Source: an uncultured Akkermansia sp.
GTDB lineage: Bacteria; Verrucomicrobiota; Verrucomicrobiia; Verrucomicrobiales; Akkermansiaceae
NCBI GenBank assembly: GCA_947626635.1
Contig: CANQSY010000001.1
Location: 592-64,591 of the forward strand
DNA length: 64,000 nucleotides
Direction of reading: 5' to 3'
Below, one piece after another: positions 1,910-64,000 of the stretch. Position 1 is the stretch's first letter; each line of letters begins with the position of its first letter. The notes below the pieces were generated by a model that was not told where the DNA came from, searched no databases, and saw nothing but the letters and a program-made list of their open reading frames with translations. The position numbers and the translations under genes were made by a program.

Positions 1910-2310
1910 GCAACCGCATTCAAAAATGCGGTTGCCTATTTACGATTTACGATCTCAGGGAATTCGCGCGCCGGTGGCGCGGGGTTGCAAAGTCGCCGAG
2001 GGAGCGAAGGCGGATTGGACAAAAGCGCAGCTTTTGCCCGCAGGGCGCTGGGCGCCTAACGGCGCCTATTTACGAATTTGCCACCTCTAAAAACTACCAA
2101 GGTGAAAAACGAGAGAAAAAAAGTTGAGGAGAAAGGAGTCAAAAAAGGGAAAAATGGGAGAATTTTGAGGGGAAAACATGGGAAAAATGTCCGAGAGGAT
2201 ACGCACCATCGTTTGCCCGCTATCTAAAAAAACGAGTTTTTAGAGGTACCAGAATTACGAATTACGATTTACGATGTGGAAAATTCGAGCGCTCCGCGCG
2301 GGAAGGAAGG
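1910..2310 (+). repeat. Modular palindromic repeat array, locus 1 (interrupted by a MITE-like insert)
   Basis: Hairpin GCAACCGCATT-CAAA-AATGCGGTTGC then CTATTTACGATTTACGA; module GGACAAAAGC-GCA-GCTTTTGCCC; second core at 2067; heptamers resume at about 2252. Confidence 0.85.
2083..2247. mobile_element. Putative MITE-like non-autonomous element (165 bp)
   Basis: Perfect 13-bp terminal inverted repeats ACCTCTAAAAACT (2083-2095) and AGTTTTTAGAGGT (2235-2247) around a purine-rich non-coding interior; splits a heptamer run; no clear target-site duplication. Confidence 0.45.
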
Positions 2311-2559
2311 ATATAGTATACTTTGAACTTCTTGGCACCCTTTTTTGTGCCAAAAAACTGTCGCATTTAATTTTGCGATCCACAGTTGACGCTCGGAGAA
2401 GGTAATGTGCTTGCCTTTTCGAGCAGCGGAGGTAGAATGGTGTTGGGTGTCGTGGTTCATGGTGTCTCTATTTTTTGGACGAAGTTAATATAGTATACTT
2501 TGAACTTCTTGGCACCCCTTTTTTGTGCCAAGAAACTGTCGCATTTAATTTTGCGATCC
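2311..2559. repeat. Near-identical 71-72 bp direct repeat (2311-2381 and 2488-2559)
   Basis: ATATAGTATACTTTGAACTTCTTGGCACCC..TTTTTGTGCCAA..AAACTGTCGCATTTAATTTTGCGATCC occurs twice with only 1-2 differences. Confidence 0.9.
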
Positions 2560-2588
2560 CCATCCACGCCTCCACGCGCGAAAGACTG

Positions 2589-2617
2589 TTGACAGCCTCT
2601 ATTTCGCGTGGTTTAAT
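2589..2617 (+). promoter_or_regulatory. Sigma70-type promoter of the DUF805 gene
   Basis: TTGACA-17bp-TTTAAT. Confidence 0.6.
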
Positions 2618-2640
2618 GTTCTGGGAACCAAGTAACGGAC

Positions 2641-3258
2641 ATGAATGCAAATCCTATACCGGCTTCTGATTTCATCGCCAATGTCAAGTACGGCTTCAAG
2701 CATTTCTTGACCTTTAGAGGACGCTCCACTCGTCCACAATTCTGGTGGTATTTCCTGGCATTATGTATCATCGACACTGTTTTCAAGACAATAGGCAATC
2801 TGTGTGCCGGCACGATCGATATCGATTTGAAAGAATTGGACACCACTACTGACATATTACAGACTTTATGGTCACAGCTGCCGCTCGGCCTCATTATTAT
2901 AACTATCGCCCAACTCGTCATCGGTATCATTCTTTCCATCTCGCTACTTGCTGCAACAGTTCGTCGTTTGCACGATGCCGGTCACTCCGCCTCCTTAGCC
3001 TACATCAACATGATTTTGTACATCATCATGTACGCCGGCTTCTTCGCTATGTTACTCAGTTTGTACAAGATCCTTCCTGTGATCGCTTCCTATCCTCAGC
3101 AAGGGCAAGAATCGTCTGCTATCGCGTTCTTCGCAGGTTGTTGCGCCGGTCTTGCCCTCATCGGGGCAGCCGCACTGATCCTATCGATCATCGTGCTGGT
3201 GTTCTTACTCAAGCCGAGTGAACCTCGTGATAATCGATACGGACCCTTCGTCAATTAA
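2641..3258 (+). CDS. DUF805 family inner membrane protein (YhaH/YhaI-like)
   Basis: N-terminal FRGRSTRPQFWW and ATVRRLHDAGHS motifs, C-terminal PRDNRYGP, 3-4 hydrophobic helices. Confidence 0.9.
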   Translation: MNANPIPASDFIANVKYGFKHFLTFRGRSTRPQFWWYFLALCIIDTVFKTIGNLCAGTIDIDLKELDTTTDILQTLWSQLPLGLIIITIAQLVIGIILSISLLAATVRRLHDAGHSASLAYINMILYIIMYAGFFAMLLSLYKILPVIASYPQQGQESSAIAFFAGCCAGLALIGAAALILSIIVLVFLLKPSEPRDNRYGPFVN

Positions 3259-3346
3259 CGACGACGTATCAACCTTTGAGGGCTTCTCGATGTCCGGTAT
3301 CCAACCCGGTCTTGAATTCATCGAGGAGCCCTCAAATGTTTCGGGC

Positions 3347-3374
3347 TTGCATGCCGGCGAGATAGGAGTATAAT
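3347..3374 (+). promoter_or_regulatory. Sigma70-type promoter of the SurA/PpiD-like gene
   Basis: TTGCAT-16bp-TATAAT. Confidence 0.55.
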
Positions 3375-3407
3375 AGACGCGCGCAACATAGAGAGCAAAA
3401 CGTCGCC

Positions 3408-6838: not shown

Positions 6839-9814
6839 TCACTTCTCCCGGGAAGGCTGCGGACGGATAACTTGCAGCGGCACTTTCACCTCGGGCAAAC
6901 CCTCAGCCGATATCGTGACCTCCGCCACACCGGCAGCACGGCGCTGACCGCGAACGATGGCGAGGATGCGTCCATTGAAAAAGCTCTGGTGGGGGGATTG
7001 CATGCAGGTATGGTCAATAGGATTGCCGTTGCAAAAGCCGATCAAGTCCGCCGGTCCGGAAATGGCGAAGGATACGGGGCGACTGTCGGTAAGCACCGGA
7101 TTCCCCTGCTCGTCGGTAAGGGTCAGTTCAATGAAAGAAAGGTCCTCTCCATCGCCAACGAGAGACTGTTGGTCAACCTGAGCAACGACCTTCGCCGTGG
7201 TGCCGGGGGTCTTGCGCGAGGCCTCGGCCCAAAGCTGTCCGTGGTACTTGACGACGACGCGTATCTCACCGGGTTCATAGACGACATCCTCCCAGACGAA
7301 ACGGTAGGCGTTTTTGGGGATGGAGATATCCTTCTGGCAGAAAAGGTTCCCCTCACCTTTGCGTCGAATTCCCTGACTCTTGCCGTTGACAAAAAGCTCG
7401 GCCTCATCGCCGGAGCTGTAACACACCACAGGCGTCACCTTTCCTTCGCGTCCGGGCCAATTCCAGTGCGGCAACAAGTGGGCAAATTGCTCATGCGGTT
7501 TCCAGCGGCTGCGGTACAGGTAATAAATATCCTTGGGGAAGCCCGCGAGATCGAAGATGCCGAAATAGGAGCTGCGGCTCGGCGCCTTGTTTCCCATGGC
7601 CTTCAAGTTATCCATGACGGCCTTCTTCTCCTGATCGGACATACCCTGTAAATTGCCCACGTTCGAGGCGTCCTGGTTGTACGGCGTCGGTTCACCGATG
7701 TAATCAAAACCTGTCCATACAAATTCACCCGCGATGCGCGGCGCCGCGTCGTGAGCGGCGAACTCGATATCCGGACAGTTTCCCCAGACGGGAGCATAGA
7801 GACCATAGGAACTCACCTGGAAGGCACGCATCCCGCCCGATACATTCCACTCCATGGGGAAAAAGTACGTATCCCGGGTGCCGACGCAGGAGCAGGTCTC
7901 AGCGCCGTAGAAGGGCATATTGGGACGCGTTACGTCATAGACCCCGTAGAGGTGGGGCTTGTAGTTAAAACCAAAAACATCCAGCGTATCACCAAAGCCA
8001 TTCCATGGACCGTCCTTGTGGTTCACCCCGGCGGTAAAGGGACGCGTCGGGTCATATTTGCGGAACTCATTGCGCAACTCGATAGAGACCTTGGAACCAC
8101 CGGGAAGGAATATCTCAGCTATCTCATTACCGCCGCTCCAGGCAATGACGCAGGGGTGATTGCGGTCGCGGCGCACGAAATTGGAGACATCTTTTTTCCA
8201 CCAATCGGTCCAATCGATGTGGTAGCCGTTGCCCTTGTCGTATTTTTGGGCTCTCCAGATATCAAAGAGCTCATCAACCACAAGAATGCCCTTCTCATCA
8301 CACAGGTCCAGAACCTCGGGCGCGGGTGGGTTGTGGGAGGTGCGGATGGCATTGCAGCCCATGTCCTGAAGGAGACGAATTTTGCGTTCGAAGGCTTTTT
8401 TATAGAAGGCGGCGCCGAGCGCGCCGAGGTCGTGGTGTTCGCAGACGCCACGCAGCTCAACACGTCGTCCATTCAGGAAAAAACCGTCCGGTGTCCATTC
8501 CGCCGTGCGCACGCCAAAACGCGTGTGGTGGACCTCGGGCTCCTTATTTTGCTCGCGGAGAGTTGTCGTGAGGGTGTAGAGGTGAGGATTTTCACAGCAC
8601 CACCATACCGGCTTATCGAGGAGGATTTCTTGCTCCACGGTGCGGGCCTCACCCGGGGCGAGAGTCACCTGCAGGGGAGAGGCTTGTCTATCACCGACCT
8701 TTTGCTCGAGAGTGAGGACAGCCGGCTGAGCGCCTGTGTTTTCAAGGTCCGTGTGTACGGTGACGATCGCATGATCTCGGGAAATTTCAGGGGTCCGCAC
8801 GCAGATGCCCCGGTAGGCGACATGAGCGGGATGGGAACGAACGAGGCGGACGTGGCGATAGATGCCGGCACCCGGGTACCAGCGGGAGGAAAGAGGTCGA
8901 TTGCTGGCCAGCACCGCCACGAGGTTTTCCTCTCCCGCCTTGAGAAAGGGAGTCATATCCACGCGAAATGAGTTGTACCCGTACGCCCATTTTCCTGCCA
9001 GTTGCCCGTTCACGTAGACCTGTGGGTGGGACATCACGCCGTCAAAGTCGAGGTAATAGCGCTCGGTTGAAGACGAGAAATCAGCCGGGACAGGGAAAGA
9101 TTTGCGATACCAGCCATAGCCCACCCAGGGCAGCTTACCTGTTTCGTTGGGTTCTTCCTTGAGGAACTTGCTCTCGATTGCCCAATCGTGGGGGACGTGG
9201 ACAGCGCGGAAACCGGTCGCATCATACCCGGGCTGAGCCGGTTCATCCGGGGAATGCTCACTCACCGGCTCGACCCTCCTGCCTTCCCGATCCACGAGCA
9301 CAATCTCGCGCACACTTGCCCATGCGGTACCTGTCGTGTCCGGGAAGGAGATGCGAATTTTTTCCAGAATTCTCTCTCCGATGGGGAGACGGGTGAGAAG
9401 GTTCTCCCGGCGCACGGTCTTTTTCTCCACCGAGCCGGGGTAAACGAGTTCAATGTCCACATTCTGGGGCACGCTCTTCTCCCAGTAGATATCCACAACA
9501 CGCAGGGGCGTCTTGTTGCCGATATTGACCTCAATCCGGTAGCCCGGACGGGAATCAGGCGCGCACCAGCGAGTCTGCATATTGCCATCCATGGCATGAC
9601 TGCATGGGTGATAAATCTGCGAACCACCGGAGGATTTGATGCAGGAGGCCTCCTCAAAGGGGTCCCCTTTGCCGAAGTACTTGAAGGACCATCCTTCGTC
9701 AAAGCAAGTGGTCTGCGGCCGCACTCGGGGCTTTTCTCCTTCCTTCTCCTCGGGCTGACATGCTACGACAAGAACCGCGCAGCACACCATCCCTATCCGA
9801 TTTAGCATTTTCAT
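6839..9814 (-). CDS. GH2 beta-galactosidase, lipoprotein with N-terminal discoidin (F5/8 type C)-like domain
   Basis: Lipobox VVAC; VPHDWAI, LRGVCEHHDLGALG, IRTSHNPP, acid/base GGNE, nucleophile GAET, C-terminal DUF4982-like region. Confidence 0.9.
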   Translation of the reverse strand: MKMLNRIGMVCCAVLVVACQPEEKEGEKPRVRPQTTCFDEGWSFKYFGKGDPFEEASCIKSSGGSQIYHPCSHAMDGNMQTRWCAPDSRPGYRIEVNIGNKTPLRVVDIYWEKSVPQNVDIELVYPGSVEKKTVRRENLLTRLPIGERILEKIRISFPDTTGTAWASVREIVLVDREGRRVEPVSEHSPDEPAQPGYDATGFRAVHVPHDWAIESKFLKEEPNETGKLPWVGYGWYRKSFPVPADFSSSTERYYLDFDGVMSHPQVYVNGQLAGKWAYGYNSFRVDMTPFLKAGEENLVAVLASNRPLSSRWYPGAGIYRHVRLVRSHPAHVAYRGICVRTPEISRDHAIVTVHTDLENTGAQPAVLTLEQKVGDRQASPLQVTLAPGEARTVEQEILLDKPVWWCCENPHLYTLTTTLREQNKEPEVHHTRFGVRTAEWTPDGFFLNGRRVELRGVCEHHDLGALGAAFYKKAFERKIRLLQDMGCNAIRTSHNPPAPEVLDLCDEKGILVVDELFDIWRAQKYDKGNGYHIDWTDWWKKDVSNFVRRDRNHPCVIAWSGGNEIAEIFLPGGSKVSIELRNEFRKYDPTRPFTAGVNHKDGPWNGFGDTLDVFGFNYKPHLYGVYDVTRPNMPFYGAETCSCVGTRDTYFFPMEWNVSGGMRAFQVSSYGLYAPVWGNCPDIEFAAHDAAPRIAGEFVWTGFDYIGEPTPYNQDASNVGNLQGMSDQEKKAVMDNLKAMGNKAPSRSSYFGIFDLAGFPKDIYYLYRSRWKPHEQFAHLLPHWNWPGREGKVTPVVCYSSGDEAELFVNGKSQGIRRKGEGNLFCQKDISIPKNAYRFVWEDVVYEPGEIRVVVKYHGQLWAEASRKTPGTTAKVVAQVDQQSLVGDGEDLSFIELTLTDEQGNPVLTDSRPVSFAISGPADLIGFCNGNPIDHTCMQSPHQSFFNGRILAIVRGQRRAAGVAEVTISAEGLPEVKVPLQVIRPQPSREK

Positions 9815-20258: not shown

Positions 20259-20413
20259 GCAAACGCAAAGCGTTTGCTTATTTACGATTGATAAGACTGC
20301 CGACGGCAGTCAGGCAGGTTAGCCGAAAGCGCAGCTTTTGCCCCTAAGGCGCTGAGTCAATGCGGTACCGACGAGTCAATCAACGTCAATCGTAAATAGG
20401 CGACGTAGTCGCC
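20259..20413. repeat. Fold-back repeat element: two inverted cores around a palindromic module
   Basis: TATTTACGATTGA (20279-20291) and TCAATCGTAAATA (20386-20398), each with an outer hairpin; internal GACTGCC-GAC-GGCAGTC and AAAGC-GCA-GCTTT. Confidence 0.85.
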
Positions 20414-25009: not shown

Positions 25010-25036
25010 CTCAAAATATTTCCCCGCGCGCCCATG

Positions 25037-25331: not shown

Positions 25332-25373
25332 GGCGATGTGGAATGCGGGCGTTGACGGTCAAAAAAAATGCAC

Positions 25374-34061: not shown

Positions 34062-34063
34062 AT

Positions 34064-42597: not shown

Positions 42598-42640
42598 TCC
42601 ACATCCCCTGCCCCTTCTCTCTCATTTCGTTTCTCAGCCT

Positions 42641-43324: not shown

Positions 43325-43345
43325 ATACTCTTGCTGGCTGATTTC

Positions 43346-43621: not shown

Positions 43622-43874
43622 AAAACATGCCCTTGTATTCAACGAGTTCTCCTCTCTTTGCCTGATCCAGCGACTTCAGCAAATGCGCCCTGTTCACCGG
43701 ATTATCCAGCAGATACCTCGTCTCCTCCTCGCTCGCCCAATCATCATACGGCACCATCACAACCTTCCTCCCGCGACTCGTAATCACCACGGGCTGACTG
43801 TCATCCACGCATTCCTTCATCAAACTCGCCAAATTCTGGCGCGCCTTACTGTAACTTACTACGGTCGGACACAT
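43596..43874 (-). CDS. yefM: Phd/YefM family antitoxin
   Basis: VSYSKARQNLA, PVVITSRG, EETRYLL..PVNRAHL..S. Confidence 0.93.
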   Translation of the reverse strand: MCPTVVSYSKARQNLASLMKECVDDSQPVVITSRGRKVVMVPYDDWASEEETRYLLDNPVNRAHLLKSLDQAKRGELVEYKGMFYDEDHSDA

Positions 43875-43885
43875 AACCCCTTTAT

Positions 43886-43904
43886 TGTACACAAAACTTG
43901 TACT
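43886..43904. promoter_or_regulatory. Putative YefM operator overlapping the promoter
   Basis: TGTACA (43886-43891) and TGTACT (43899-43904) cores; - strand TCGACA-16bp-TACAAT. Confidence 0.5.
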
Positions 43905-43934
43905 TTGTCGATCTAAAAAAATACACACACCGGG

Positions 43935-44333
43935 GCAAACGCATTTTCCAATGCGTTTGCTATTTACGATTTACGAATTACGATTTACGATTTGGGATGC
44001 TAGCGCGCCAAAGGCGCGGGATATGCTAAGCAGTAGCGAAGCGGAATTTCCGAGAGCAATGGTGATGGATAGCTAGAAAGGAGCCGGGCGGCGGGCGCCT
44101 GGGCTGCGCCTATTTACGATTACGAATTACGTTGACTCACCGCCGCCCCATCGACGGTTCGCCCTGCGGGCAAAAGCACCGCTTTTGTCCAATCCCACTC
44201 CGGGCCCTCGTGGGCTTTGCCTATTTACGATTTTCGATTTTCGAATTACGATTTCGGGGAATTCGCGCACCGGGGGCGCGTTCCAGCCGAGCGATAGCGA
44301 AGCGGAATTTTCGAGGACGAGGGGGCGGCGTTC
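43935..44333 (+). repeat. Modular repeat array on the upstream side of yefM-yoeB
   Basis: Cores at 43961, 44111, 44222; ends at a hairpin loop directly abutting the next stop codon. Confidence 0.92.
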
Positions 44334-45092
44334 TCACACCTTTTCCGGTCCGCGATACGAAACAAAGAAGCCATCACCGCGGTAGGGAGTGGGGTCAGAG
44401 ATGTCGTGCTTTTTGAGACCCACGCGGGCAATGTAGCCGGGGATTTCCTGCGGAGAATCCGGGAGTTGGCGGCGAAAGGCATCCGGATCGGGGAGAGGTT
44501 CATGAGCATCGGGGTCGACGACGCAGATCCAACCCGGCAAACCGTCTTCATCGCGAAACCAGATATTCGGCTGGACATGGGGAATATCCTGGTAGGAAAG
44601 AATGGGAACATTCTTCTTTCTCAGTTCGTTGATAACGACGGATACGCGCAGATTGCTCAGCTCCCAGTCCGACATGGGAACGGGCTCGGGCAGGTCCGGC
44701 ACCTCGGCAGGATTGATCATCTCGCCGGAAACAGGCGAAAGCAGATTCCACCCAAGAGAAAGAGGCGCCATGCTGTGCACCCAAATGGGGAAAAAGGCGG
44801 GCTCAAGGTTAAAATGGCGGGCCTCTTCAAGAAGGAGAGTCCGTTGATCCTCGGGTAAGGATATCTGGACCTGAACCTGTTTGCCGCGCTGTCCATGCGC
44901 ATTTTCTACTTTTGCGAGGAGGACGGCGTAAATCCGGTTGCCGACGGAAAAGATGAGGTCGGCAAATGAGGGACGAGACGGCTGCACCTTGTGCCACGCG
45001 TGGCGCCGGTTTTCCAACGTATCGAGGCACTGCTGCAACTGGTTGCCACACACCTTGAATGCCTCAATGTATTGTTGCTCGTCGAATACCAT
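44334..45092 (-). CDS. Hypothetical protein (252 aa)
   Basis: Clean ORF 21 bp downstream of gatB, same strand. Confidence 0.7.
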   Translation of the reverse strand: MVFDEQQYIEAFKVCGNQLQQCLDTLENRRHAWHKVQPSRPSFADLIFSVGNRIYAVLLAKVENAHGQRGKQVQVQISLPEDQRTLLLEEARHFNLEPAFFPIWVHSMAPLSLGWNLLSPVSGEMINPAEVPDLPEPVPMSDWELSNLRVSVVINELRKKNVPILSYQDIPHVQPNIWFRDEDGLPGWICVVDPDAHEPLPDPDAFRRQLPDSPQEIPGYIARVGLKKHDISDPTPYRGDGFFVSYRGPEKV

Positions 45093-45113
45093 AGAGAGGG
45101 AGAGAAAAAGCTG

Positions 45114-46586
45114 TTAAACTTTCAATCGGGCGAGGATGAGCTGGGTGACAAGTTTCGGGTTGGGCTTGGGCTGAGCCACTTTCATGACTTTGCCTGTGAG
45201 GGCATTGACGAGCTTGGCATTGCCGGCGCGCACGAGCTCCACCATGTCCGGATTCTCTGCCAAAACGCGATCGACCATCGACTCCAACTCTCCGGCGTCG
45301 GCTTTCTTGTAACCCAGTTGATCAGCGGCATCGGCTGCACTTTTCTCCGGATGCGCCCACATGAGCTCCAGCACCTCACGCGCCTGACTGGTGGAGACCA
45401 CTCCCTGCTCCACGATACCGACAAGATCCGCGAGGGCCGAGGGAGAAACGGGGCACTCCGCGAGAGAAACGTTTTTTTCCGCAAGCACACCCGAAAGCGT
45501 GTTAAGCACCCAGTTGGCCACCTTCTTGGTCGGCGCCTTGTTCTCCTTTGTCGCCGCCTCAAAATAGGTGCACAGCTCCCCGTCACTCACCAGCGCCGTC
45601 GCATCTGCCGAGGGCAAGCCATATTCCTCCATCAATCGCTGCCGTCGTGCGTTCGGCAGCTCCTGTATATTCTGCTTCACACGCTCCACAAGGGGGGCTG
45701 TGTGGATGGGAATGAGGTCCGGACAAGTGTGGTAGCGGTAATCGTGGGCATTTTCTTTGGTACGCATGACCACACTCTCACCGAGGGCATCATCCCAGCG
45801 GCGGGTGGACTGCACCTGTGCGATACCCGCATCCAGTTCCTCCGCCTGGCGACGAATCTCGTAGATAAGCGCTCGGCGAGCCGCGGACATGGAATTGATG
45901 TTTTTCATCTCAATTTTGGCGCCGAGTTCCTCCTGCCCCTTGGGGCGAAGGGACACATTGACGTCACAGCGCATCTCACCCTTTTCCATATCGGCATGGG
46001 AAATGCCGGCGCAGATCATCATCTGCTGAAGACTCTTGAGGTAGGCATACGCTTCATCCGGCGTGTGGAGGTCCGGGGCAGAGACAATTTCCATGAGTGG
46101 CGTGCCGCCGCGATTGTAGTCCACGAGCGAATAGCCGGCATAATGGGTAAGCTTGGCTGCATCCTCCTCGAGATGGATGTGGTCCAGCTGAACGCGGCGC
46201 ACGACTCCGTCCTGCGAAGCCGGTAGTTTGGTATGAGGAGGAAAAGCCCACTCGTAGAGAGGAACCGAGCCGCCCATGCAGAGCGGGAGATCCAGCTGAC
46301 TCGTCTGGTAATTTTTCGGCATATCCGGATAAAAGTAATTTTTCCGATCCCATTTGCTGATTTCCGGTATGCGACAGTCCAACAAGAGACCGGCAAGAAT
46401 GGTGCGCTCAATGGCGTACTCGTTGAGCACGGGAAGAGCACCCGGCATGCCGAGACAAGTGGGGCAAACGTTTGTGTTCGGTTCATAGCCAAAGCCGGCT
46501 CGGCAAGTGCAGAACATCTTGGTGGCTGTATTGATCTGGCAATGAACCTCGAGTCCTATGGTTACCAGGTAGTCGTCGACAGGCAT
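45114..46586 (-). CDS. gatB: Asp-tRNA(Asn)/Glu-tRNA(Gln) amidotransferase subunit B
   Basis: IGLEVH, RKNYFYPDMPKNYQ, HLEEDA, DYNRGGTPLMEIVS, MRCDVN, DYRY. Confidence 0.97.
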   Translation of the reverse strand: MPVDDYLVTIGLEVHCQINTATKMFCTCRAGFGYEPNTNVCPTCLGMPGALPVLNEYAIERTILAGLLLDCRIPEISKWDRKNYFYPDMPKNYQTSQLDLPLCMGGSVPLYEWAFPPHTKLPASQDGVVRRVQLDHIHLEEDAAKLTHYAGYSLVDYNRGGTPLMEIVSAPDLHTPDEAYAYLKSLQQMMICAGISHADMEKGEMRCDVNVSLRPKGQEELGAKIEMKNINSMSAARRALIYEIRRQAEELDAGIAQVQSTRRWDDALGESVVMRTKENAHDYRYHTCPDLIPIHTAPLVERVKQNIQELPNARRQRLMEEYGLPSADATALVSDGELCTYFEAATKENKAPTKKVANWVLNTLSGVLAEKNVSLAECPVSPSALADLVGIVEQGVVSTSQAREVLELMWAHPEKSAADAADQLGYKKADAGELESMVDRVLAENPDMVELVRAGNAKLVNALTGKVMKVAQPKPNPKLVTQLILARLKV

Positions 46587-46593
46587 AAGTTTT

Positions 46594-47535
46594 TCATTGA
46601 GGGAGGGTTAAACCGACGCCCTCATGCAGGGCATCATCCAAATCAGTGCGGAAACTCGCATCGAACACATCGTCGAAACACTCTGCATGCGTGCAGCTCA
46701 AACTCTCGTACACGTCATCCAACGCATCAGAAAAGGTGTCAAATTGCTCGCTATCGTAACCGGGAAGCCCAACGATGCGAACGATCTCATTGCGGATCTT
46801 CCAGAGAACAGTTTCCAACTCACGACAGACGCCCAGCAGCTCTTCGCGCTGGTTGTCCGGGAAGTTGAATGCGCAGAGACGCAACTCCGGCTGTGCATCG
46901 CTCATTTTTTTTGCCAATTGGTGCAACTGCGGCGCGATACGGGTCGCCGTCGGGGCATCCTTGACCATGACGAGTAAGCTCAACAGTTGATCGTCCGGCT
47001 TCCGCAGCGCGCGGAGGCGACGAATCTCAATGACGGCGGCGGACGATGTGAGCACAAGTGTCGTGGTATGCAAATACACCTCATCCTCATCGCTGAATAT
47101 GCCCTCCCGTATTGCCTTGGTAAAGGCGCGGGTGAGCCCCGCCGAACCGTAACAGCGAGCGCGACAAAGGCTGGTAAACTCGCTGCTCAGCTCTTCATAC
47201 GCCTCCGCAATCCGATACGTATCCTCGTTGTCCAGCGCCTCGACGTCCAGCGCCTGCGCGTCAGCATCAAACATAGCGTTGCTCAATTCAGCGGATTGTT
47301 CGACAAGGCGGGAAAATTTCTCCGCCGCCCGATCAGCCGTCTCCTTGTTCATGACGCCGGAAAGCAGCAGCCACATCTCATTGGTGACGCGTAAAAGCTT
47401 CGAGGAGACAGCTCCGCCGTCCGGATTTCGTCCCTGCTCGGGAGCCGTTCCGGCAGCAAACGCTGACGGCAGCAAAATGATTGCTGCTATCACAAAGCCC
47501 GTCAGCCGCCAGATCCCTTTCATCTCGCCGCTCAT
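46594..47535 (-). CDS. Secreted hypothetical protein with two internal alpha-helical repeats
   Basis: Signal peptide ending SAFA-AG; duplicated LLxxVxxxxTAxRxA segments. Confidence 0.72.
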   Translation of the reverse strand: MSGEMKGIWRLTGFVIAAIILLPSAFAAGTAPEQGRNPDGGAVSSKLLRVTNEMWLLLSGVMNKETADRAAEKFSRLVEQSAELSNAMFDADAQALDVEALDNEDTYRIAEAYEELSSEFTSLCRARCYGSAGLTRAFTKAIREGIFSDEDEVYLHTTTLVLTSSAAVIEIRRLRALRKPDDQLLSLLVMVKDAPTATRIAPQLHQLAKKMSDAQPELRLCAFNFPDNQREELLGVCRELETVLWKIRNEIVRIVGLPGYDSEQFDTFSDALDDVYESLSCTHAECFDDVFDASFRTDLDDALHEGVGLTLPQ

Positions 47536-47624
47536 TGTACACGCTTACCCCACCGTTTTCAAGTCCGACTTTACAAACAGGGACTACCAGTCACATCCGT
47601 CCCAAGAAAAACGAGGGCAATAAG

Positions 47625-48020
47625 GGGCGCCGGGCGCCTTCGGCGCCTATTTACGATTTTCGATTTTCGATTTACGATTTCAGGGAATTCGCGCGCGAAG
47701 CGCGGGATATGCCAGGCAGTAGCGAAGCGGAATTTTCGAGGACGAGGGGCGGTGATGAAAGGAAAGCGGCGGAGGGCCGGGCGCCTTCGGCGCCTATTTA
47801 CGATTTTCGATTTTCGAATTACGATTTGGAATGCTAGCGCGCCAAAGGCGCGGGATATGCGATGCAAGGGCATCGGTGGTGGGATCAATCATGGCGGGAT
47901 GTTATGAGGAAAGCGGCCGGGCGGCGTTCCGCCGCCTATTTACGAATTACGATTTACGAATTACGATTTGGGATGCTAGTGCGCCAAAGGCGCGGGGGAG
48001 CGGAGCGCCTCCTTGCGCTC
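47625..48020 (+). repeat. Modular repeat array (3 cores) between divergent genes
   Basis: Cores at 47648, 47795, 47937; one module nearly identical to 25081-25180. Confidence 0.92.
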
Positions 48021-48102
48021 AGAGAAATTTTATGGGGGACACGTGTGGGGACAGGTGGAAAAATGTATAGGAGGAAGGCGAAACACCGCCTGTTCATTTG
48101 GC

Positions 48103-48131
48103 TTGCAAAATGGGGCATGGAGTGGTATGGT
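48103..48131 (+). promoter_or_regulatory. Promoter of the MBL hydrolase operon (probably leaderless)
   Basis: TTGCAA-17bp-TATGGT, 7 nt before ATG 48139. Confidence 0.6.
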
Positions 48132-48138
48132 TCTGCGC

Positions 48139-48765
48139 ATGCGTTCGCAGATCCAACAGTATACCGGCGGTCCCCTCATGTGCAATGGGTACCTGGTAGA
48201 GGCTGCACCGGGCGTGTTTGTGGCGATTGATGCCCCGGCGGGTTTTGCCGACTGGCTGCGGGGTGTCCTGCCGCCGAACGCCCGTCTGGCGCATCTGCTC
48301 ATCACGCACCAGCACTTTGACCATATTGCGGACGTCCGGCAGCTCGTGCAGGAAACAGCTTGCGAGGTTCACGCCTGCGCGCCGTACAGTGCGCAGCTCA
48401 CTCTCGAAGGTCACGCCCGGAGCTGGGGCATTCCGGAGCCTCCTTCCTTCCGAGTGGTCCGTACCTACCCCGAGGGCACGCACGAACTCCGACTCGCGGA
48501 CGCGGTGTGGCAGGCTCTGCACGTGCCGGGGCACTCCACCGACAGCCTCGCGTGGTACCTTGCAGATGCCCGAGCCGTCTTCACCGGAGATGCCCTCTTT
48601 GCCGGCAGCATCGGTCGCACGGATCTGCCCGGCGGCAGCGCCGCCCAACTTGTGCAGAGCATTCGCGAAAAACTCCTTCCTCTGCCGCCCCGAACCGAGG
48701 TTCTTCCGGGGCATGGCGCCTCGTCAACCATCGGCGAAGAAGAAATCAATAACCCCTTCTTATAA
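48139..48765 (+). CDS. MBL-fold metallo-hydrolase (YcbL/glyoxalase II-like)
   Basis: THQHFDH, PGHS, TGDALF..SIGRTDLPGG, PGHG. Confidence 0.92.
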   Translation: MRSQIQQYTGGPLMCNGYLVEAAPGVFVAIDAPAGFADWLRGVLPPNARLAHLLITHQHFDHIADVRQLVQETACEVHACAPYSAQLTLEGHARSWGIPEPPSFRVVRTYPEGTHELRLADAVWQALHVPGHSTDSLAWYLADARAVFTGDALFAGSIGRTDLPGGSAAQLVQSIREKLLPLPPRTEVLPGHGASSTIGEEEINNPFL

Positions 48766-55738: not shown

Positions 55739-55780
55739 CTATGCCCCTATTCTACCACATACCGCGCCCAATGCAAGCCC

Positions 55781-55932
55781 CGGGCGCCTTCGGCGCCTAT
55801 TTACGATTTTCGATTTACGATCTACGATTTGGAATTAATGCGCGCCGGGGGCGCGTTCCAGTGGAGCGTATGCAAAGCGGAATTTTCAGGGTCAACGGTA
55901 ATGAATAGCTAGAAAGGAGCTGGGCGCCTTCG
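55781..55932 (+). repeat. Single repeat unit (core, module, half core)
   Basis: Core at 55798; ends within the next hairpin at GGGCGCCTTCG. Confidence 0.9.
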
Positions 55933-57057: not shown

Positions 57058-60000
57058 TCAGAGGGTAGGATGCGGATCCTGGGGATCGAACACCGGAGAA
57101 TCATCCGATGCTTTCTTCTGCTTGTTCTCGGACTTGATATGGACGAGTCGTTTTTTTCGCGAGGGGAGGGAGAGCTTTTTCTCGTGCATGACGGCGCCCT
57201 CCGGCAACGCGCCGGAAAGGCTATCCTCCCGGGCGGAGCTCTCCTGCGCCTCCTGCTCATGGAGGCGGCGCAACTGGTCGCGCAGGGAGGTCAGGAGGTC
57301 TCCCTGATTAAGAAAATCATCTCCGCCGGAATCGTTATGGGGGTCGGCGACCGGGAGCGAGGCGAGGAAGTCCTCGAAGGCGCTGAGGTTGGTGGTGCTG
57401 CGGAAGAGTCGGCTGAGCATATCCAGCTGGATATCCTGCATCAGCGTTTCGAAGAGACCGTAGGCCTCGCGCTTGTATTCCACGAGCGGGTCGCGCTGTC
57501 CCTGGGCACGCAGACGCACCCCTTCCCGCAGGGCATCCATGTCGTTGATGTGCCGCTGCCACATCTTATCAATCGCCTGCAACATGAGCTGCCGTTCCAT
57601 ACGGTCCACGTAGTCCGGACGTTCCCCGCTCACCTTTTTCTCGTACATCTCGCGCACGCGATCGCAGATGAGTTTAGCCGCCTCGCCGGCAGTTTTGCCC
57701 TCCAGTTGGGCATCCTTTTCGCTCCAGCCGGTGGGGAAGGCTGTGTTCACCCAGTTAAGCAAGCTTTCGGCATTCACGGTGCCGTCGTGTTCATCCTGGA
57801 TGTAGTATTCGCACTTAAACTGCACGGCTTCATCGAGAATCTCGTAGATCATGATGCGCGGTTCCTCGCAGAGGAGCGCATCGTTGCGCATGGCGTACAC
57901 AATGGTGCGCTGCTGGTTCATGACGTCGTCGTAATCCAGCACGTGCTTACGCCAAATATAATTGCGCTGCTCAACCCTCTTTTGGGCGCCCTCGATGATT
58001 TTGTTCATGAGGCGGTTCTCCACAGCCTCGCCCTCTTCCATGCCGAAGCGGTCCATGATCTTGGTCATGCGCTCGCTCCCGCCGAAGTTGCGCATGAGGT
58101 CGTCCTCGAACGAAAGGAAGAATTGCGAGGCTCCGGGGTCGCCCTGCCGCGAACAACGTCCGCGCAGCTGGCGGTCAATTCGCCGCGCCTCGTAGCGCTC
58201 GGTCCCCAGCACGAAGAGACCACCCAAATCCGCCACACCTTCGCCCAACTTGATGTCCGTACCGCGACCCGCCATGTTGGTAGAAACCGTGACGGCGGCG
58301 CGCTGTCCCGCCAGGGCGATGATCTCCGCCTCACGCTGGTGATTTTTGGCGTTGAGCACCTCATGCGGCACCTTCGCCATCTTGAGCATGCGCGAGAGGG
58401 TCTCCGAGGCATCCACCGAAGCCGTCCCTACCAGCACCGGCTGCCCCTTCTTGTGCAGCTCCACAATCTTCGCCACAACGGCATTGAACTTTTCCCGACG
58501 GCTCTTAAAAATGAGGTCGTTGAAATCCTCGCGGATGCAGGGCTTGTTGGTCGGGATGGGAAGGACGTCCAGCTTGTAGATGTCGTGGAACTCTGCCGCC
58601 TCGGTTTCCGCCGTACCGGTCATGCCTGCCAAACGGCTGTAAAGGCGGAAGTAATTCTGGATGGTGATGGTGGCGTAGGTCATGTTCTCCTCTTCGACCT
58701 CGACGCCTTCCTTGGCCTCCACCGCCTGGTGCAGCCCTTCGCTCCAGCGGCGACCGGGCATTTCGCGACCGGTATTCTGGTCGATGATGATGATCTTGCC
58801 TTCCTTCACGACGTACTCCTTATCGCGCTCATAGATCGTGTAGGCCTTGAGCAGTTGGCTCGTCGTATGCAGGCGGATGCCGGTTTCCTCCAGCTTCTTG
58901 GTCAGGGCCTGCTTACGCGCTTCTTTCTCGCGCTCGCTGAGGCGCTCGTTCTCGTCAATGTTGACAAATTCCGTTCCGATATCGGGGAGGACGAAATCCT
59001 CGGGGTGTCCGGGGCTGATGAGTTGACGTCCCTGCTCCATCAGGTCCGCGTCGTGCGTCTTCTCATCCACGGAGAAGTAAAGTTCCTCCTTGAGACGGAA
59101 GAGTTCTTGTTTGCGCGGGTCCTGGAAGAGGAAGAGCTCATATTTTTCCACCATGCGGCGGAACTCGGGATCCTGCTGGGAGCGCATGAAAGCACGGTTG
59201 CGCGGCATTCCCAGCTTAACCTTGTACAGGCAGCGACCGGCGGCTTCCGTGTTGCCCTCCTTGGCGTAGTCGAACGCCTGAGTCATGAGTTTGTTGCACA
59301 GCTCTACCTGCGCCTTCACCACCTTTTCGATGATGGGCTTGAGCTTGTCGTACTGCTGTTCCGTCTCGATGACGGCGGGACCGGAAATGATGAGCGGCGT
59401 GCGTGCTTCGTCGATGAGGATGGAATCCACCTCGTCGATAATGGCGAAGTAATGACCGCGCTGCACCTGCGCCTCGCGGGTGGTGGCCATGCCATTGTCG
59501 CGCAGATAGTCGAAGCCGAACTCGGCGTTTGTGCCGTAGGTGATGTCGCAAGCGTACTGCTCGTGCCTCAGGTCGTTCGGCATAAGGCTCTGGATGCAGC
59601 CCACCGTGAGGCCGAGAAAGTTGAACAGAGCCCCCATCCACATGGAGTCGCGTTTAGCGAGATAATCGTTCACCGTCACCACGTGCACACCCAGCCCCGT
59701 CAGCGCATTCAGGTACACCGGCAATGTCGCCACCAGCGTCTTGCCCTCGCCCGTCGCCATCTCGGCGATGAACCCCCGATGCAGCGCGACGCCGCCCAAC
59801 AGCTGCACGTCGAAGTGCACCATGTTCCACTCGGTCGGCGTGCCGCAAACATCGATGACCTTGCCGCACATCATACGCGCCGCTAATTTCACGACGGCGA
59901 AAGCCTCCGGCAGGATGGCGTCCAGGTACTTGCTGCGCAACTTGTCGAACTTCGGTTCAATATCGACAAAGGCCTTTTTCCCCTCTTCAATGGACGCCAC

Positions 60001-60309
60001 CGAGGCCTCAACGTGCGGAAGTTTGGGAAAGACATCGCGCAGGGCGTCGAAGCGGGTGTTGAGTGTATCGGCGTACCGGTCGAGCTGCTCCTGGGAGGCG
60101 GCGAGGATGATGCCTCGCGGCGGCATGTCGATCGGCGTGAAGCGGTGCAGGTAAGACTGCCACTCGCGGGTTTTGCCGCGCAGGAACTCCTCATCTTTTT
60201 CCATCCACTCCGCCTCTTTCTCAAGAATGCGTTTCACAACGGGACGCAACTTGCGCACTTCCCGCTGATTTTTTGATCCCACAATTTTATTGAGAATCCA
60301 CTTGATCAT
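57058..60309 (-). CDS. secA: Preprotein translocase ATPase SecA
   Basis: AEMATGEGKT, IIDEVDSILIDEAR, TNMAGRGTDI, RQLRGRCSRQGDPG; start MIKWIL. Confidence 0.97.
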   Translation of the reverse strand: MIKWILNKIVGSKNQREVRKLRPVVKRILEKEAEWMEKDEEFLRGKTREWQSYLHRFTPIDMPPRGIILAASQEQLDRYADTLNTRFDALRDVFPKLPHVEASVASIEEGKKAFVDIEPKFDKLRSKYLDAILPEAFAVVKLAARMMCGKVIDVCGTPTEWNMVHFDVQLLGGVALHRGFIAEMATGEGKTLVATLPVYLNALTGLGVHVVTVNDYLAKRDSMWMGALFNFLGLTVGCIQSLMPNDLRHEQYACDITYGTNAEFGFDYLRDNGMATTREAQVQRGHYFAIIDEVDSILIDEARTPLIISGPAVIETEQQYDKLKPIIEKVVKAQVELCNKLMTQAFDYAKEGNTEAAGRCLYKVKLGMPRNRAFMRSQQDPEFRRMVEKYELFLFQDPRKQELFRLKEELYFSVDEKTHDADLMEQGRQLISPGHPEDFVLPDIGTEFVNIDENERLSEREKEARKQALTKKLEETGIRLHTTSQLLKAYTIYERDKEYVVKEGKIIIIDQNTGREMPGRRWSEGLHQAVEAKEGVEVEEENMTYATITIQNYFRLYSRLAGMTGTAETEAAEFHDIYKLDVLPIPTNKPCIREDFNDLIFKSRREKFNAVVAKIVELHKKGQPVLVGTASVDASETLSRMLKMAKVPHEVLNAKNHQREAEIIALAGQRAAVTVSTNMAGRGTDIKLGEGVADLGGLFVLGTERYEARRIDRQLRGRCSRQGDPGASQFFLSFEDDLMRNFGGSERMTKIMDRFGMEEGEAVENRLMNKIIEGAQKRVEQRNYIWRKHVLDYDDVMNQQRTIVYAMRNDALLCEEPRIMIYEILDEAVQFKCEYYIQDEHDGTVNAESLLNWVNTAFPTGWSEKDAQLEGKTAGEAAKLICDRVREMYEKKVSGERPDYVDRMERQLMLQAIDKMWQRHINDMDALREGVRLRAQGQRDPLVEYKREAYGLFETLMQDIQLDMLSRLFRSTTNLSAFEDFLASLPVADPHNDSGGDDFLNQGDLLTSLRDQLRRLHEQEAQESSAREDSLSGALPEGAVMHEKKLSLPSRKKRLVHIKSENKQKKASDDSPVFDPQDPHPTL

Positions 60310-60361
60310 ATCGAATAGCTGTTGGTATATTCCCTCGCGAGCAGGTGTCCCCGCGCGCGTC

Positions 60362-60390
60362 ATCCTACCATAGCTCGCGCTCGTTTGCAA
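60362..60390 (-). promoter_or_regulatory. Promoter of secA
   Basis: TTGCAA-17bp-TAGGAT with TGG extension. Confidence 0.6.
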
Positions 60391-60440
60391 GGGGAATGTC
60401 GTTGCTTTACGCGTGGAGACACAAAATTCCGGGCGGGGGC

Positions 60441-60985
60441 CGGGCGCCTTCGGCGCCTATTTACGATTTTCGATTTACGATTTACGATCTCAGGGAATTC
60501 GCGCGCGAAGCGCGGGATATGCCAAGCAGTAGCGAAGCGGAATTTTCAGGGTCAACGGTAATGAATAGCTAGAAAGGAGCCGGTGGCGCCTGGGCTGCGC
60601 CTATTTACGATTTTCGATTTACGTTGACTCACCGCCGCCCCATCGACGGTTCGCCCTGCGGGCAAAAGCACCGCTTTTGTCCAATCCCCCTCCGAGCCCT
60701 CGGGGGCTTTTTACGATCTCAGGGAATTCGCGCGCGAAGCGCGGGATATGCCAAGCAGTAGCGAAGCGGAATTTTCAGGGTCAACGGTAATGAATAGCTA
60801 GAAAGGAGCCGGTGGCGCCTAGGCTGCGCCTATTTACGATTTTCGATTTACGTTGACTCACCGCCGCCCCATCGACGGTTCGCCCTGCGGGCAACGCGTG
60901 AGCGTTGTCCGCAGGGCGCTGAGGTAGTGCGGTACCGAAGCGTCAAAGCAGTAGCGAAGCGGAATTCTTGAAATGATGGTGCGTT
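60441..60985 (+). repeat. Modular repeat array containing a 229-bp-period tandem duplication
   Basis: Cores at 60458, 60602, 60831; 60481-60665 repeated at 60710-60894. Confidence 0.93.
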
Positions 60986-61006
60986 GGGGTGGTATCTCGG
61001 CATACC

Positions 61007-62260
61007 TCACCCGTTCAAACAGGCGGGGTTGAGGAGGAAATCGCGGAGGGGGAGGATGAAGATGCCGAAGGGGTCGTAGTGAGCAGCGGGCGCATCACGA
61101 GTGATGAGGACCTTTTTGAAGGAATCGCTGACGGCAAGCAGGGGGCGCTCCTCCTGTTCGCGTTTTTCACGGGTGGGAATGGAAAGAGAGGACTGGATGT
61201 AGATGCGTGAATCGCCGAGGTTGGCGACAAAATCGACCTCCACTTTTTTTCGCTCACGCGAGGCTTTACCCTTGTCCTTGTCCACTTCCACGGATCCGAC
61301 ATCCACATTGTAGCCGCGGATGAGTAGCTCGTTGTAAATCACGTTTTCCATGATGTGAGCCTCCTCCGTCTGGCGGAAATTGATGCAAGCATTGCGCAGC
61401 CCCATGTCCACAAAATAATACTTGTAGGGGGAATCAATGTAACGGTTTCCGCGGATATCGAAACGTTCAGCACGTTGGATGAGGAACGCCTCCTGCAGGA
61501 GATCGAGAAATTGCTTGATCGTGGGAGCAGAAAGATTGACGTGTTTGACACTCGCGAAGCAGTTTGCCAGCTTACGGGGGTTGAGCAGGCAGCTGATGTT
61601 TGACGCCAGGATGTTCATCAATTCGTCAAGCTCCTCCGTCTTGCGAAGTCGGTTGCGCTCGATCATGTCGCGCAGGTAGGTCTCACGGAAGAGAGAACGC
61701 AGGTATTGCATCTTCTTCCTCGGCTCATCGATGGAGAGTGTGAGCGGCATACCTCCGTAGAGGATGTACTCCTTCCATGCCTCCTCCCAGTAGCAATCCT
61801 TCACCGAATAAAACTCGGCAAAGCTCAGCGGATGCACGCGCACCTCGTCGCCGCGTCCTCGAAACTCCGTCACCACGTCACTCGACAGAAAACGCGAGTT
61901 GCTCCCCGTCACGTAGATGTCGAGATGGCGCACACGCAGCAAGCCATTGAGCACACTCTCGAAGTCCGCCATCATCTGCACCTCATCCAGCAGCAGATAG
62001 TACATCTCTTCATCACGTATTTGCGCTTTCACGTACCGGTAGCATTCCTCCGGGTCGCGGTATTTCCGCTCATCAAAATTATCCAGAGCCAAGCTGATGA
62101 TGTGGTCCTCCCTCACCCCCGACTCCAGCAAATGGCGACGAAACAACTCGAAAAGAAGATAGGATTTGCCGCAGCGCCGGACCCCGCTCACAATTTTGAT
62201 CAGCCCGTTTTCCCGTTTGGAAACAAGTTGATCGATATACTCTTTTCGTTTAATTTCCAT
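61007..62260 (-). CDS. AAA_14 ATPase with C-terminal DUF4143 domain
   Basis: GVRRCGKS, LLDEVQ, TGSNS, KYYFVDMGLRN, ENVIYNEL, EVDFV; start MEIKRK at 62260; lower GC. Confidence 0.9.
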   Translation of the reverse strand: MEIKRKEYIDQLVSKRENGLIKIVSGVRRCGKSYLLFELFRRHLLESGVREDHIISLALDNFDERKYRDPEECYRYVKAQIRDEEMYYLLLDEVQMMADFESVLNGLLRVRHLDIYVTGSNSRFLSSDVVTEFRGRGDEVRVHPLSFAEFYSVKDCYWEEAWKEYILYGGMPLTLSIDEPRKKMQYLRSLFRETYLRDMIERNRLRKTEELDELMNILASNISCLLNPRKLANCFASVKHVNLSAPTIKQFLDLLQEAFLIQRAERFDIRGNRYIDSPYKYYFVDMGLRNACINFRQTEEAHIMENVIYNELLIRGYNVDVGSVEVDKDKGKASRERKKVEVDFVANLGDSRIYIQSSLSIPTREKREQEERPLLAVSDSFKKVLITRDAPAAHYDPFGIFILPLRDFLLNPACLNG

Positions 62261-62272
62261 AGGTTTATAATT

Positions 62273-62318
62273 TTCTATTTTACACAATGCGGGAATTCCC
62301 GCGAAGTGTAAAATAGAA
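62273..62318. promoter_or_regulatory. 46-bp interrupted palindrome in the leader/promoter of the DUF4143 ATPase
   Basis: TTCTATTTTACAC-AAT-GCGGGAATTCCCGC-GAA-GTGTAAAATAGAA. Confidence 0.6.
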
Positions 62319-62341
62319 TATACGCAAAAGCCTCCCTTTTG

Positions 62342-62405
62342 GCAAGACAATTCACTTGCTATTTACGGGGCGCCGGGCGCCTTCGGCGCCTATTTACGAT
62401 TTACC
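62342..62405 (+). repeat. Minimal repeat array (2 cores) between the DUF4143 ATPase and the gltA stop
   Basis: GCAAG..CTTGC-TATTTACG (62360) and GGCGCC-TTC-GGCGCC-TATTTACGATTTAC (62391). Confidence 0.85.
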
Positions 62406-63543
62406 TCATGTCCAGCATGGGAACGAGGAGGGGCTCATTGGTCCCCACGTAGCGGGAGAGCGGACGGAAGAGGGTGTTGTCCTCCAACTGCTCGAGGATT
62501 TGCGCGACCCAGCCAGCGACGCGAGCGATGGCGAAGACGGTGGTGAACATCCGGGTGGGGATGCCTAGGCTGTAGTAAACGGTGGCGGAATAGAAATCGA
62601 CGTTGGCGTTGAGATTTTTTCGGTCGCGCAGGATTTTGGCAATCATGTCGCTCATGCGGATCCACTTGGGTTCGCCGATGGTTTGGGTGAGGCGGATGGC
62701 GATGCGGCGCAGCTGCGGCGCGCGCGGATCGAGAGTCTTGTACACGCGGTGTCCGATGCCGAAGATTTTCTCGTGGTTCGCGAGTTTCTCATTGATGTAC
62801 GCCTCCACGTTGGACTCTTCCCCGATCTCCTTGAGCATCTCGATCACCGCTTCATTGGCGCCGCCGTGCAGCGGTCCCTTGAGGGTGCCGATGGCAGAGG
62901 TGATGCAGGAATACATGTCCGACAGGGTGGAGGCCGTCACTCGGGAGGAGAAGGTAGAGGCGTTCATCCCGTGGTCAGCGTGCAGAATGTACGCCACGTC
63001 CAGGATATGCGCCTCGCCCGGGTCCGGCTCCTTCCCCTTCAACAGCCAGAGGAAATGCGCCGCCTCGTCGAGATCCGTGCGGATGGGCGGCAGGTCCAAC
63101 CCCTGGCAGGTGCGGTAGTAATAGGCCGCCATCACCGGCAACTTGGCGATGAGCGACAGCCCGATCTCCTTCATCTGCGTCGGGTCCTTTGTCCGGTCGT
63201 CGTACATGCCGAGCATGGAGACCGCCGTGCGCAGCGCGCTCATGGGACGCGCCGTCTTAGTGGCGGTCTTGAAGAAATCCAGAATCGGCTGCGGCAGCTC
63301 GCGATCCGTGCGCAATCTCTGCTGCAGACCCATGAGTTCTTGTCGATTCGGCAGCCTCTTGTTGAGCAGGAGATAGATGATCTCCCCGTAGGAACAGAGA
63401 TCCACCAAATCCTCAATATCGTACCCGCAGTAAAGCAAACGTCCCTCCTCACCCCGCACATCGCTGAGCCGTGTTTCATTCGCTACAATGCCTTTGAGCC
63501 CTTTGCTGTAGATTGGTTGAGGCGCGTCGCTGTCGGGTGTCAT
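62401..63543 (-). CDS. gltA: Citrate synthase
   Basis: YSKGLKG, LHADHGMNAST, GPLHGGANE, GIGHRVYK, NVDFYS; start MTPDSD. Confidence 0.96.
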   Translation of the reverse strand: MTPDSDAPQPIYSKGLKGIVANETRLSDVRGEEGRLLYCGYDIEDLVDLCSYGEIIYLLLNKRLPNRQELMGLQQRLRTDRELPQPILDFFKTATKTARPMSALRTAVSMLGMYDDRTKDPTQMKEIGLSLIAKLPVMAAYYYRTCQGLDLPPIRTDLDEAAHFLWLLKGKEPDPGEAHILDVAYILHADHGMNASTFSSRVTASTLSDMYSCITSAIGTLKGPLHGGANEAVIEMLKEIGEESNVEAYINEKLANHEKIFGIGHRVYKTLDPRAPQLRRIAIRLTQTIGEPKWIRMSDMIAKILRDRKNLNANVDFYSATVYYSLGIPTRMFTTVFAIARVAGWVAQILEQLEDNTLFRPLSRYVGTNEPLLVPMLDMR

Positions 63544-63630
63544 CTTCTCGTTCAGGGGGTGGAGGGTTCGTTTCCGTCGGTGAAGCGTCGTGACGCATCG
63601 ACGGAGCTCCCGCATCGTTGCGGCTTGCGT

Positions 63631-63659
63631 ACTGTAGCGTAAAATCGGCCCTCTGTCAA
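63631..63659 (-). promoter_or_regulatory. Promoter of gltA
   Basis: TTGACA-17bp-TACAGT. Confidence 0.65.
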
Positions 63660-63725
63660 CACATCCGTCCCAAGAAAAAACACCCCCAATAAGTGGTTAA
63701 CGGCGTATCACGCAGCATAAGTTGT

Positions 63726-64000
63726 TGATTATTTACGAATTACGATTTCAGGGAATTCGCGCGCGAAGCGCGGGATATGCCAAGCAGTAGCGAAGCGGAA
63801 TTTTCGGGAGCAATGGTGATAGTAGCTAGAAAGGGAAGAGGAAGAAGAGCCGGGCTGCGCCTATTTACGATTTACGATTTACGATTTGGGATGCTAGCGC
63901 GCCAGTGGCGCGGGGGAGCAAAGCCGCCGATGGATCGGAGGCCGATTGGATAAAAGCGCGGCTTTTGTCCAGCCTTCCTCCCCCGTCCGCACCTGCTTGA
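63726..64000 (+). repeat. Modular repeat array running to the window end
   Basis: Cores at 63730 and 63862; GGGAATTCGCGCGCGAAGCGCG module; GGATAAAAGC-GCG-GCTTTTGTCC module. Confidence 0.9.

Follow-up and report, generated by a model that had tools for sequence, protein, structure and literature searches.

Long-range strand polarity of a clade-specific intergenic repeat in Akkermansia, with a plausible but partial link to the replication strand

Results

Repeat places in the window

The stretch analysed here, called the window, comprises 64,000 nucleotides (contig C1, positions 592–64591) of an uncultured Akkermansia metagenome-assembled genome, G000, whose assembly of 155 contigs and 2.16 Mb is 98.8% complete. 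From SecA and the sequence on either side of it, G000 belongs to a rabbit-gut Akkermansia. Between its genes lie repeat units of about 140 nt built around an 8-mer core, TATTTACG, and nearly all copies of this core read along the same strand. Twenty-five copies are on the + strand and one is on the − strand (20391–20398), a total of 26 against a chance expectation of 0.65 (100 shuffles; standard deviation 0.77, maximum 3). A sequence search of the window returned exactly the 25 + positions and the single − copy that the original prediction had listed. These are not 25 independent events, since the 26 cores fall into 11 places between genes, each a short array of one to three units spaced about 140 nt apart. 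Ten of the places are purely + and one is a fold-back with both orientations; a + core is therefore present in 11 of 11 (two-sided p ~0.001). Outside the window, C1 holds three further + cores, which brings the contig to 28:1. The places, together with a group of degenerate copies, are listed below.

1915–2080, +, array of two cores (1937, 2067) with a G+C hairpin before each, between divergent genes
20259–20413, both orientations, fold-back unit with + core 20279 and the sole reversed core, 20391–20398
25030–25340, +, array between divergent genes, its three cores (25052, 25192, 25321) about 140 nt apart
34072–34700, +, array with cores 34094, 34234 and 34568, adjoining a HicB-like antitoxin gene (34714–35157, −)
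35504–35660, + polarity, degenerate copies (TTTTTACG and CTATTTTTG variants), far side of the HicB cassette
43063–43285, +, array with cores 43085 and 43223, after rsfS (+) and before a YoeB/YefM pair (43346–43928, −)
43940–44290, +, array with cores 43961, 44111 and 44222, far side of the YoeB/YefM cassette
47626–48000, +, array with cores 47648, 47795 and 47937, between divergent genes
55776–55900, +, single unit with core 55798, between two − genes, one trkH-like and the other downstream of secA
60436–60990, +, array upstream of secA (−) with cores 60458, 60602 and 60831, two of its units being 99% identical
62360–62405, +, two cores (62360, 62391) directly against the citrate synthase (−) stop codon
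63693–63915, +, array with cores 63730 and 63862, between two − genes

By our own dicodon-based gene calls (1680 genes, 86% coding), six of the places lie between two − genes, four between divergent genes and one between convergent genes. The earlier statement that the cores sit among divergent, convergent and co-oriented genes alike is roughly borne out by these counts, except that no place falls between a +/+ pair. The accessory genes found between arrays are all on the − strand: the HicB-like antitoxin, the YoeB/YefM toxin-antitoxin pair and an AAA_14/DUF4143 ATPase. The last of these (61007–62350) is bracketed by the arrays at 60436–60990 and 62360–62405. Two of the window's proteins, FtsH (40273–42597, 774 aa) and SecA (57058–60390, 1110 aa), are long and carry additional segments, N-terminal or internal, compared with the spans of the Pfam domains.

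Unit architecture and distribution of the family

A unit of about 140 nt consists, in order, of a G+C hairpin of variable sequence, TATTTACG, a run of heptamers, a second hairpin and a spacer. The stems directly before TATTTACG are of 7–13 bp and G+C, differ in sequence among copies and are predicted to fold; examples are GGGCGCC-TTC-GGCGCC, GGCGGCG-TTC-CGCCGCC and the 13-bp stem at 1908–1936. Behind the core come one to five heptamers, each ATTTACG, ATTTTCG or AATTACG, and the second hairpin is either GCGCGCGAAGCGCGC or GCGCGCCAAAGGCGCGC. Additional hairpin modules are spliced into units in either orientation. TTAC, the target tetranucleotide of IS608, occurs within the core and every heptamer. 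No family was matched in an Rfam search of the window.

G000 as a whole carries 338 cores in 233 places, with 300 of the 338 outside called genes. To follow the family through the genus, the 10-mer CTATTTACGA was counted across 154 Akkermansia genomes. It is abundant in three of them (261 copies in G000, 241 in G139 and 195 in G146); G140, G141, G145 and G148 hold 17–42 copies each, and the other genomes show a background of mostly fewer than 10. The family is therefore young and restricted to one clade of rabbit-gut Akkermansia. Relatives at 84% SecA identity have diverged core variants. A metagenome scan with the core plus heptamers yielded unrelated single matches only, and our literature search found no paper on such repeats in Akkermansia. 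In the assembly of G000 the repeats are a main cause of breaks, since 62 of the 233 places lie at contig edges.

Orientation along the contigs

Over the whole of G000 the two orientations are balanced (167 cores on + and 171 on −), and only 3 of the 233 places mix them. Neighbouring places on a contig share an orientation in 98 of 128 pairs, and this agreement does not decay over 0–60 kb. C1 is the largest and, at 28:1, the most extreme of the 155 contigs. Unanimous orientation is also found on C17, C31, C34, C37, C43 and C52, and switches occur in blocks on C4 (++−−), C9 (−−−++), C15 (+++−−) and C29 (−−++). A model with one hidden direction per contig is fitted with f = 0.83 and gains 18.6 in log-likelihood over independence. 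Similarly, in the sister genome G146 a hand count gives 42 of 58 adjacent pairs concordant. The polarity of the cores is real, extends over tens of kilobases and is reproducible. Local duplication was considered as the cause of this coherence and rejected, because only 21 of 293 copies have their nearest relative by sequence on their own contig (about 6 are expected at random). Several of the orientation exceptions are copies less than 1 kb from a contig end (C6, C16, C22 and C48 in G000; C3, C4, C9, C10 and C11 in G146).

Orientation relative to genes and transcripts

Between co-oriented genes of G000, the core is antisense in 57 cases and sense in 26 (2.2:1). Divergent (30) and convergent (28) contexts are roughly as frequent as available. 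The polarity had been described as independent of gene orientation, and with this antisense preference the description does not hold in full. What survives of it is that gene direction falls short of the observed coherence: a simulation from flank orientation only gives an adjacent agreement of 0.51, against 0.78 observed (p < 0.0002). Moreover, places in divergent or convergent contexts side with their neighbours 29:14, and where the neighbour rule and the flank rule are in conflict the neighbours prevail 14:8. The correlation of local gene-strand bias with polarity is only weak (rho = −0.12). The simulation and the behaviour of the divergent and convergent places led us to reject flanking-gene direction as the sole cause.

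Cores within called open reading frames are sense in 22 cases and antisense in 5. The antisense strand, (CGTAAAT)n-CGTAAATAG, presents TAA or TAG in all three frames and then a hairpin without a U tract, and the sense strand has no stop codons and carries UAUUUACGAUUUU directly after the hairpin. In the sense orientation the hairpin lies at a median of 36 nt past the stop codon, and where a gene end falls within 40 nt of a hairpin it is the stop 30 times and the start 15 times. In sequence, the sense hairpin with UAUUUACGAUUUU resembles a weak terminator. Only four of the eight bases of the canonical tail, UAUUUACG, are U, and it does not pass a terminator scan, though the stems fold, and a minority of copies (54 of 141) lie downstream of a same-strand gene. 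The stop-rich antisense strand followed by a hairpin suggests, as judged from its sequence, a reason for the gene-direction bias. A degenerate core variant, GCCTATTTTTGATTTTCG (35618–35658, copy at 35622), is the sole family member in 33500–48500 to pass the terminator-like scan.

Orientation relative to the replication strand

A closed genome of a congener, G007 (3,175,525 bp, 2.8 Mb of it analysed), served to relate composition to replication. Its cumulative GC skew describes a clean V with a minimum at 1.22–1.24 Mb and continues to climb at 2.78 Mb. The 16S genes, of which there are three (678 kb, −; 1196 kb, −; 2030 kb, +), are co-directional away from the skew minimum, as are most of the highly expressed marker genes that were located, and the direction of these genes identifies the G/T-rich strand as the leading strand there, as is usual. 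The dnaA gene of G007 stands at the start of the record (422–916), with the skew minimum at about 1.23 Mb; it seems to lie far from the origin, near a skew maximum beyond 2.78 Mb.

Ordering the contigs of G000 on G007 was rejected, because synteny between the two genomes persists at operon scale only and leading or lagging status is kept in 52% of 417 orthologues. With a draft of 155 contigs and a gene order scrambled relative to G007, the contigs are therefore without replichore assignment. The strand was instead scored with a discriminant that combines GC and AT skew at third codon positions (GC3 and AT3), corrected for gene strand and calibrated on G007. On the replichores of G007 its accuracy is 89% for 10-kb segments, 93% for 20-kb and 96% for 40-kb; on G000 the contig scores are bimodal. 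A place is called anti when TATTTACG is read on the C/A-rich, lagging-type strand, and same when it is not.

By this composition proxy, anti places outnumber same places 145:73 (66.5% of 218 places; contig-flip permutation p = 0.002), and anti contigs outnumber same contigs 52:29 by the discriminant (p = 0.014). Among the contigs with at least three places and a majority, 23 of 30 follow the anti rule (two-sided binomial ~0.005). Used as a prior, the skew score adds 2.8 to the log-likelihood (approximately p = 0.02), and in a logistic regression strand and flank have independent odds ratios of 2.26 and 2.03. The association of polarity with replication-linked strand asymmetry is thus about 2:1 per place and holds on about three quarters of the multi-place contigs. 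The inference that orientation is tied to replication is supported in part, and only by the place and contig scores from GC3 and AT3; raw GC skew and the switches inside contigs, described in the Discussion, do not bear it out. A replication link for the polarity, as seen through a composition proxy on a 155-contig draft, is plausible but only partial.

The window itself is favourably placed for both biases. Its + strand is C/A-rich, with negative GC skew and mostly positive AT skew (z = −2.1 for C1), and most of the flanking genes are on the − strand; both biases therefore favour + cores. A two-factor model assigns a joint probability of 0.058 to the 11 scored window places, which makes the window a favourable tail and not an anomaly.

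The spacer between citrate synthase and secA can be compared with that of two sister metagenome-assembled genomes, L155 and L179 (92% SecA identity). The element at this site is sense in L155 and L179 and antisense in G000. The AAA_14/DUF4143 gene, with repeats on both sides, occupies the spacer in G000; L155 and L179 lack it in the orthologous spacer. Pooled over the three shared genes around secA, the skews are as follows.

G000: GC3 −0.094, AT3 −0.194
L155: GC3 −0.136, AT3 −0.093
L179: GC3 −0.148, AT3 −0.104

L155 and L179 are shifted to the lagging-type composition, in the direction predicted by the replication rule, and the shift is at the edge of or within the bootstrap interval. As support for that rule it is only suggestive. 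Downstream of the secA operon, L155 and L179 (about 7530–7610 in each) have a tRNA-like gene and different neighbours, and the same site in G000 has the repeat unit at 55798 and the trkH-like gene, a synteny break at a repeat place.

Candidate enzymes

Candidates for acting on the repeats were tried and rejected. Tyrosine recombinases number 8–13 in repeat-rich and repeat-free genomes alike, and the four-helix-bundle family PF05635 does not follow the repeats, being found in the repeat-free G007 but not in G146. Three tyrosine recombinase genes stand in tandem on a small contig of G000 (C111, 562–3286).

Discussion

The repeats can be placed among several known systems, and they are rated REP/BIME-like in kind, without the defining features of REP, IS200/IS605 or integrons. 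Like REPs and REPINs, they occur in hundreds of short intergenic copies per genome and are lineage-specific; they join a variable hairpin to a short conserved motif, which on the bottom strand stands 5′ of the hairpin as GTAG does in REPs; they combine hairpin and linker modules as a mosaic; and a role as mRNA 3′ hairpins is possible. They differ in that G000 is without a Y1/RAYT gene, that the units form direct arrays at about 140 nt and not inverted doublets (orientation is mixed in only 3 of 233 places), and that the conserved motif is TATTTACG, not GTAG, and is followed by tandem heptamers, (ATTTACG)n. The IS200/IS605 elements IS608 and ISDra2 are oriented with a bias towards the lagging-strand template (PMC6006769, PMC3333891), and the repeats may be so too; they also resemble these elements in having subterminal hairpins near a short conserved sequence and a motif 5′ of a variable hairpin, as at IS608 ends. 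However, the bias in G000 is only about 2:1, neither TnpA nor TnpB is matched in G000, and no defined left and right ends or target-site rule are established for the units.

The likeness to integron attC sites lies in a hairpin whose structure is kept while its sequence varies beside a conserved core, in uniform polarity over many sites and in the bracketing of small accessory genes (toxin-antitoxin pairs, an ATPase). Here, in contrast, the sites are dispersed genome-wide among housekeeping genes (secA, ftsH, uvrD, dapA, citrate synthase), the intervening genes are on both strands, and no integron integrase of G000 reaches the cut-off. Chi and KOPS are 8-mers with a strand bias of about 2–3:1 tied to replication direction, as may be the core here, but most of them fall within genes, they are G-rich on the leading strand and they belong to no repeat, whereas the Akkermansia 8-mer is the core of an intergenic element of about 140 nt found in few species only. 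Apart from IS200/IS605 and REP sequences, intergenic repeats with strand polarity are, to our knowledge, seldom seen.

We give about an even chance to the explanation that this is a young, mosaic, clade-specific repeat family whose orientation is biased by two filters, replication strand and gene direction. The replication filter would place the TATTTACG-reading strand preferentially on the C/A-rich, lagging-type strand. With TATTTACG there, the complement, 5′-(CGTAAAT)n-CGTAAATAG-hairpin-3′, would be on the lagging-strand template and single-stranded at the fork. Targeting of that template is documented for IS608 and ISDra2 and has been proposed for BIMEs (PMC3333891, PMC6006769). We infer a fork-coupled mechanism in which copies, folded as single-stranded DNA, may be inserted or kept at forks in the manner of IS200/IS605 elements and of the proposal for REP/BIME; the enzyme involved would not be a recognisable Y1 transposase. 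The fidelity of the replication filter is about 0.67 per place when measured against the skew score and about 0.8 given one hidden direction per contig. The gene-direction filter favours the antisense orientation 2.2:1 inside co-oriented pairs, where the mRNA would read three-frame stops and then a hairpin without a U tract. The 25:1 of the window would then reflect both filters aligned, plus some luck.

Several results weigh against this explanation. Raw GC skew shows no significant relation to polarity on the contigs of G000 (48 anti, 33 same), nor is there an association where |skew| is at least 0.08. The coefficients of the discriminant come from another species, G007, and the best-fit weight of the skew prior is one third of the G007 calibration. 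Agreement with the anti rule does not increase with discriminant strength, |z|; seven multi-place contigs break the rule, several of them at high |z| (C6, C9, C107), and polarity switches inside contigs of uniform z (C4, C9, C29, C48). Strand and flank together leave coherence over, the two-factor model giving 0.59 adjacent agreement against 0.78 observed (p = 0.0002). As for an enzyme, PF01797 (Y1/RAYT, TnpA) has no match in G000 at its 98.8% completeness, although control genomes matched; TnpB (PF07282) has none in G000 either, and the best score there for an integron integrase (TIGR02249) is 87 bits against a cut-off of 265. The residual coherence, the lack of a rise with |z|, the contigs that break the rule and the switches at uniform z fit either a stronger replication effect that a noisy proxy shows imperfectly, the genome having been rearranged recently, or a further cause that acts regionally. 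The skew of G000 is more mosaic than that of G007 (lag-3 sign concordance 0.69–0.74 against 0.85–0.87), which is compatible with the noisy proxy.

A rival account holds that polarity domains of tens of kilobases arise from a cause other than replication, with the 2:1 skew association a side effect or coincidental; such domains could come from recent block inversions mediated by repeats, from regional spread of a few oriented founders by recombination or gene conversion, or from import of large blocks from other strains. We regard this as doubtful, though it deserves to be taken seriously. The coherence left over by the two factors, the block-like switches (++−−, −−−++) inside uniformly skewed contigs, an association no stronger at higher |z|, the mosaic skew of G000 and a gene order heavily scrambled across the genus all speak for it. 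On the other side, the closest relatives of copies are mostly on other contigs, which makes founder spread within a domain unlikely, and an inversion would turn repeats and skew over as one, which keeps an existing association but does not create one. That 23 of 30 contigs obey one rule also counts against domains of such origin, and triplets of places (7 isolated flips, 22 switches) look no different from independent noise around one direction per contig.

Two simpler accounts fare worse. Transcription and translation alone could set the orientation if the surviving copies were those that neither terminate nor extend their neighbours, with runs of co-oriented genes mimicking polarity. The antisense preference of 57:26 between co-oriented genes, the TAA in all three frames of the antisense heptamers, the sense excess of 22:5 within called open reading frames, the sense hairpins at a median of 36 nt past stop codons and the lack of any window array between +/+ genes are as this account expects. 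It is nevertheless quite improbable, given that flank orientation alone yields 0.51 where 0.78 is observed, that divergent and convergent places follow their neighbours, that neighbours win where the rules conflict and that gene-strand bias is so weakly related to polarity. Least probable by far, and in effect refuted, is that repeats of random orientation produced the window as an extreme by chance. Such an extreme would be in keeping with the standing of C1 as the largest and most extreme of 155 contigs and with the genome-wide balance of 167:171, but adjacent pairs are concordant at 0.74 even without C1, a like pattern appears in a second genome, G146, and the coherent model has its log-likelihood gain of 18.6.

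A bolder form of the fork-coupled mechanism, which we consider unlikely, is that the repeats are a new mobile or recombining element of single-stranded DNA at the fork, with no Y1 HUH transposase and with a host or element enzyme recognising the hairpin and CGTAAATAG, or else a polar signal that the host has adopted to orient its chromosome. In either case a recently rearranged genome would show its present direction of replication more faithfully in the orientation of the repeats than in base skew.

Our study describes polarity without the enzyme that normally explains such polarity, in a gut genus that attracts wide interest. If the link to replication is false, these are an ordinary lineage-specific repeat family with a regional orientation pattern that is unexplained. 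If it is true, fork direction and recent inversions in these Akkermansia could readily be read from the repeats. The repeats would also be a sign that hairpin DNA is moved at forks by a route not yet recognised, and would explain the insertion of small toxin-antitoxin and ATPase cassettes between housekeeping genes.

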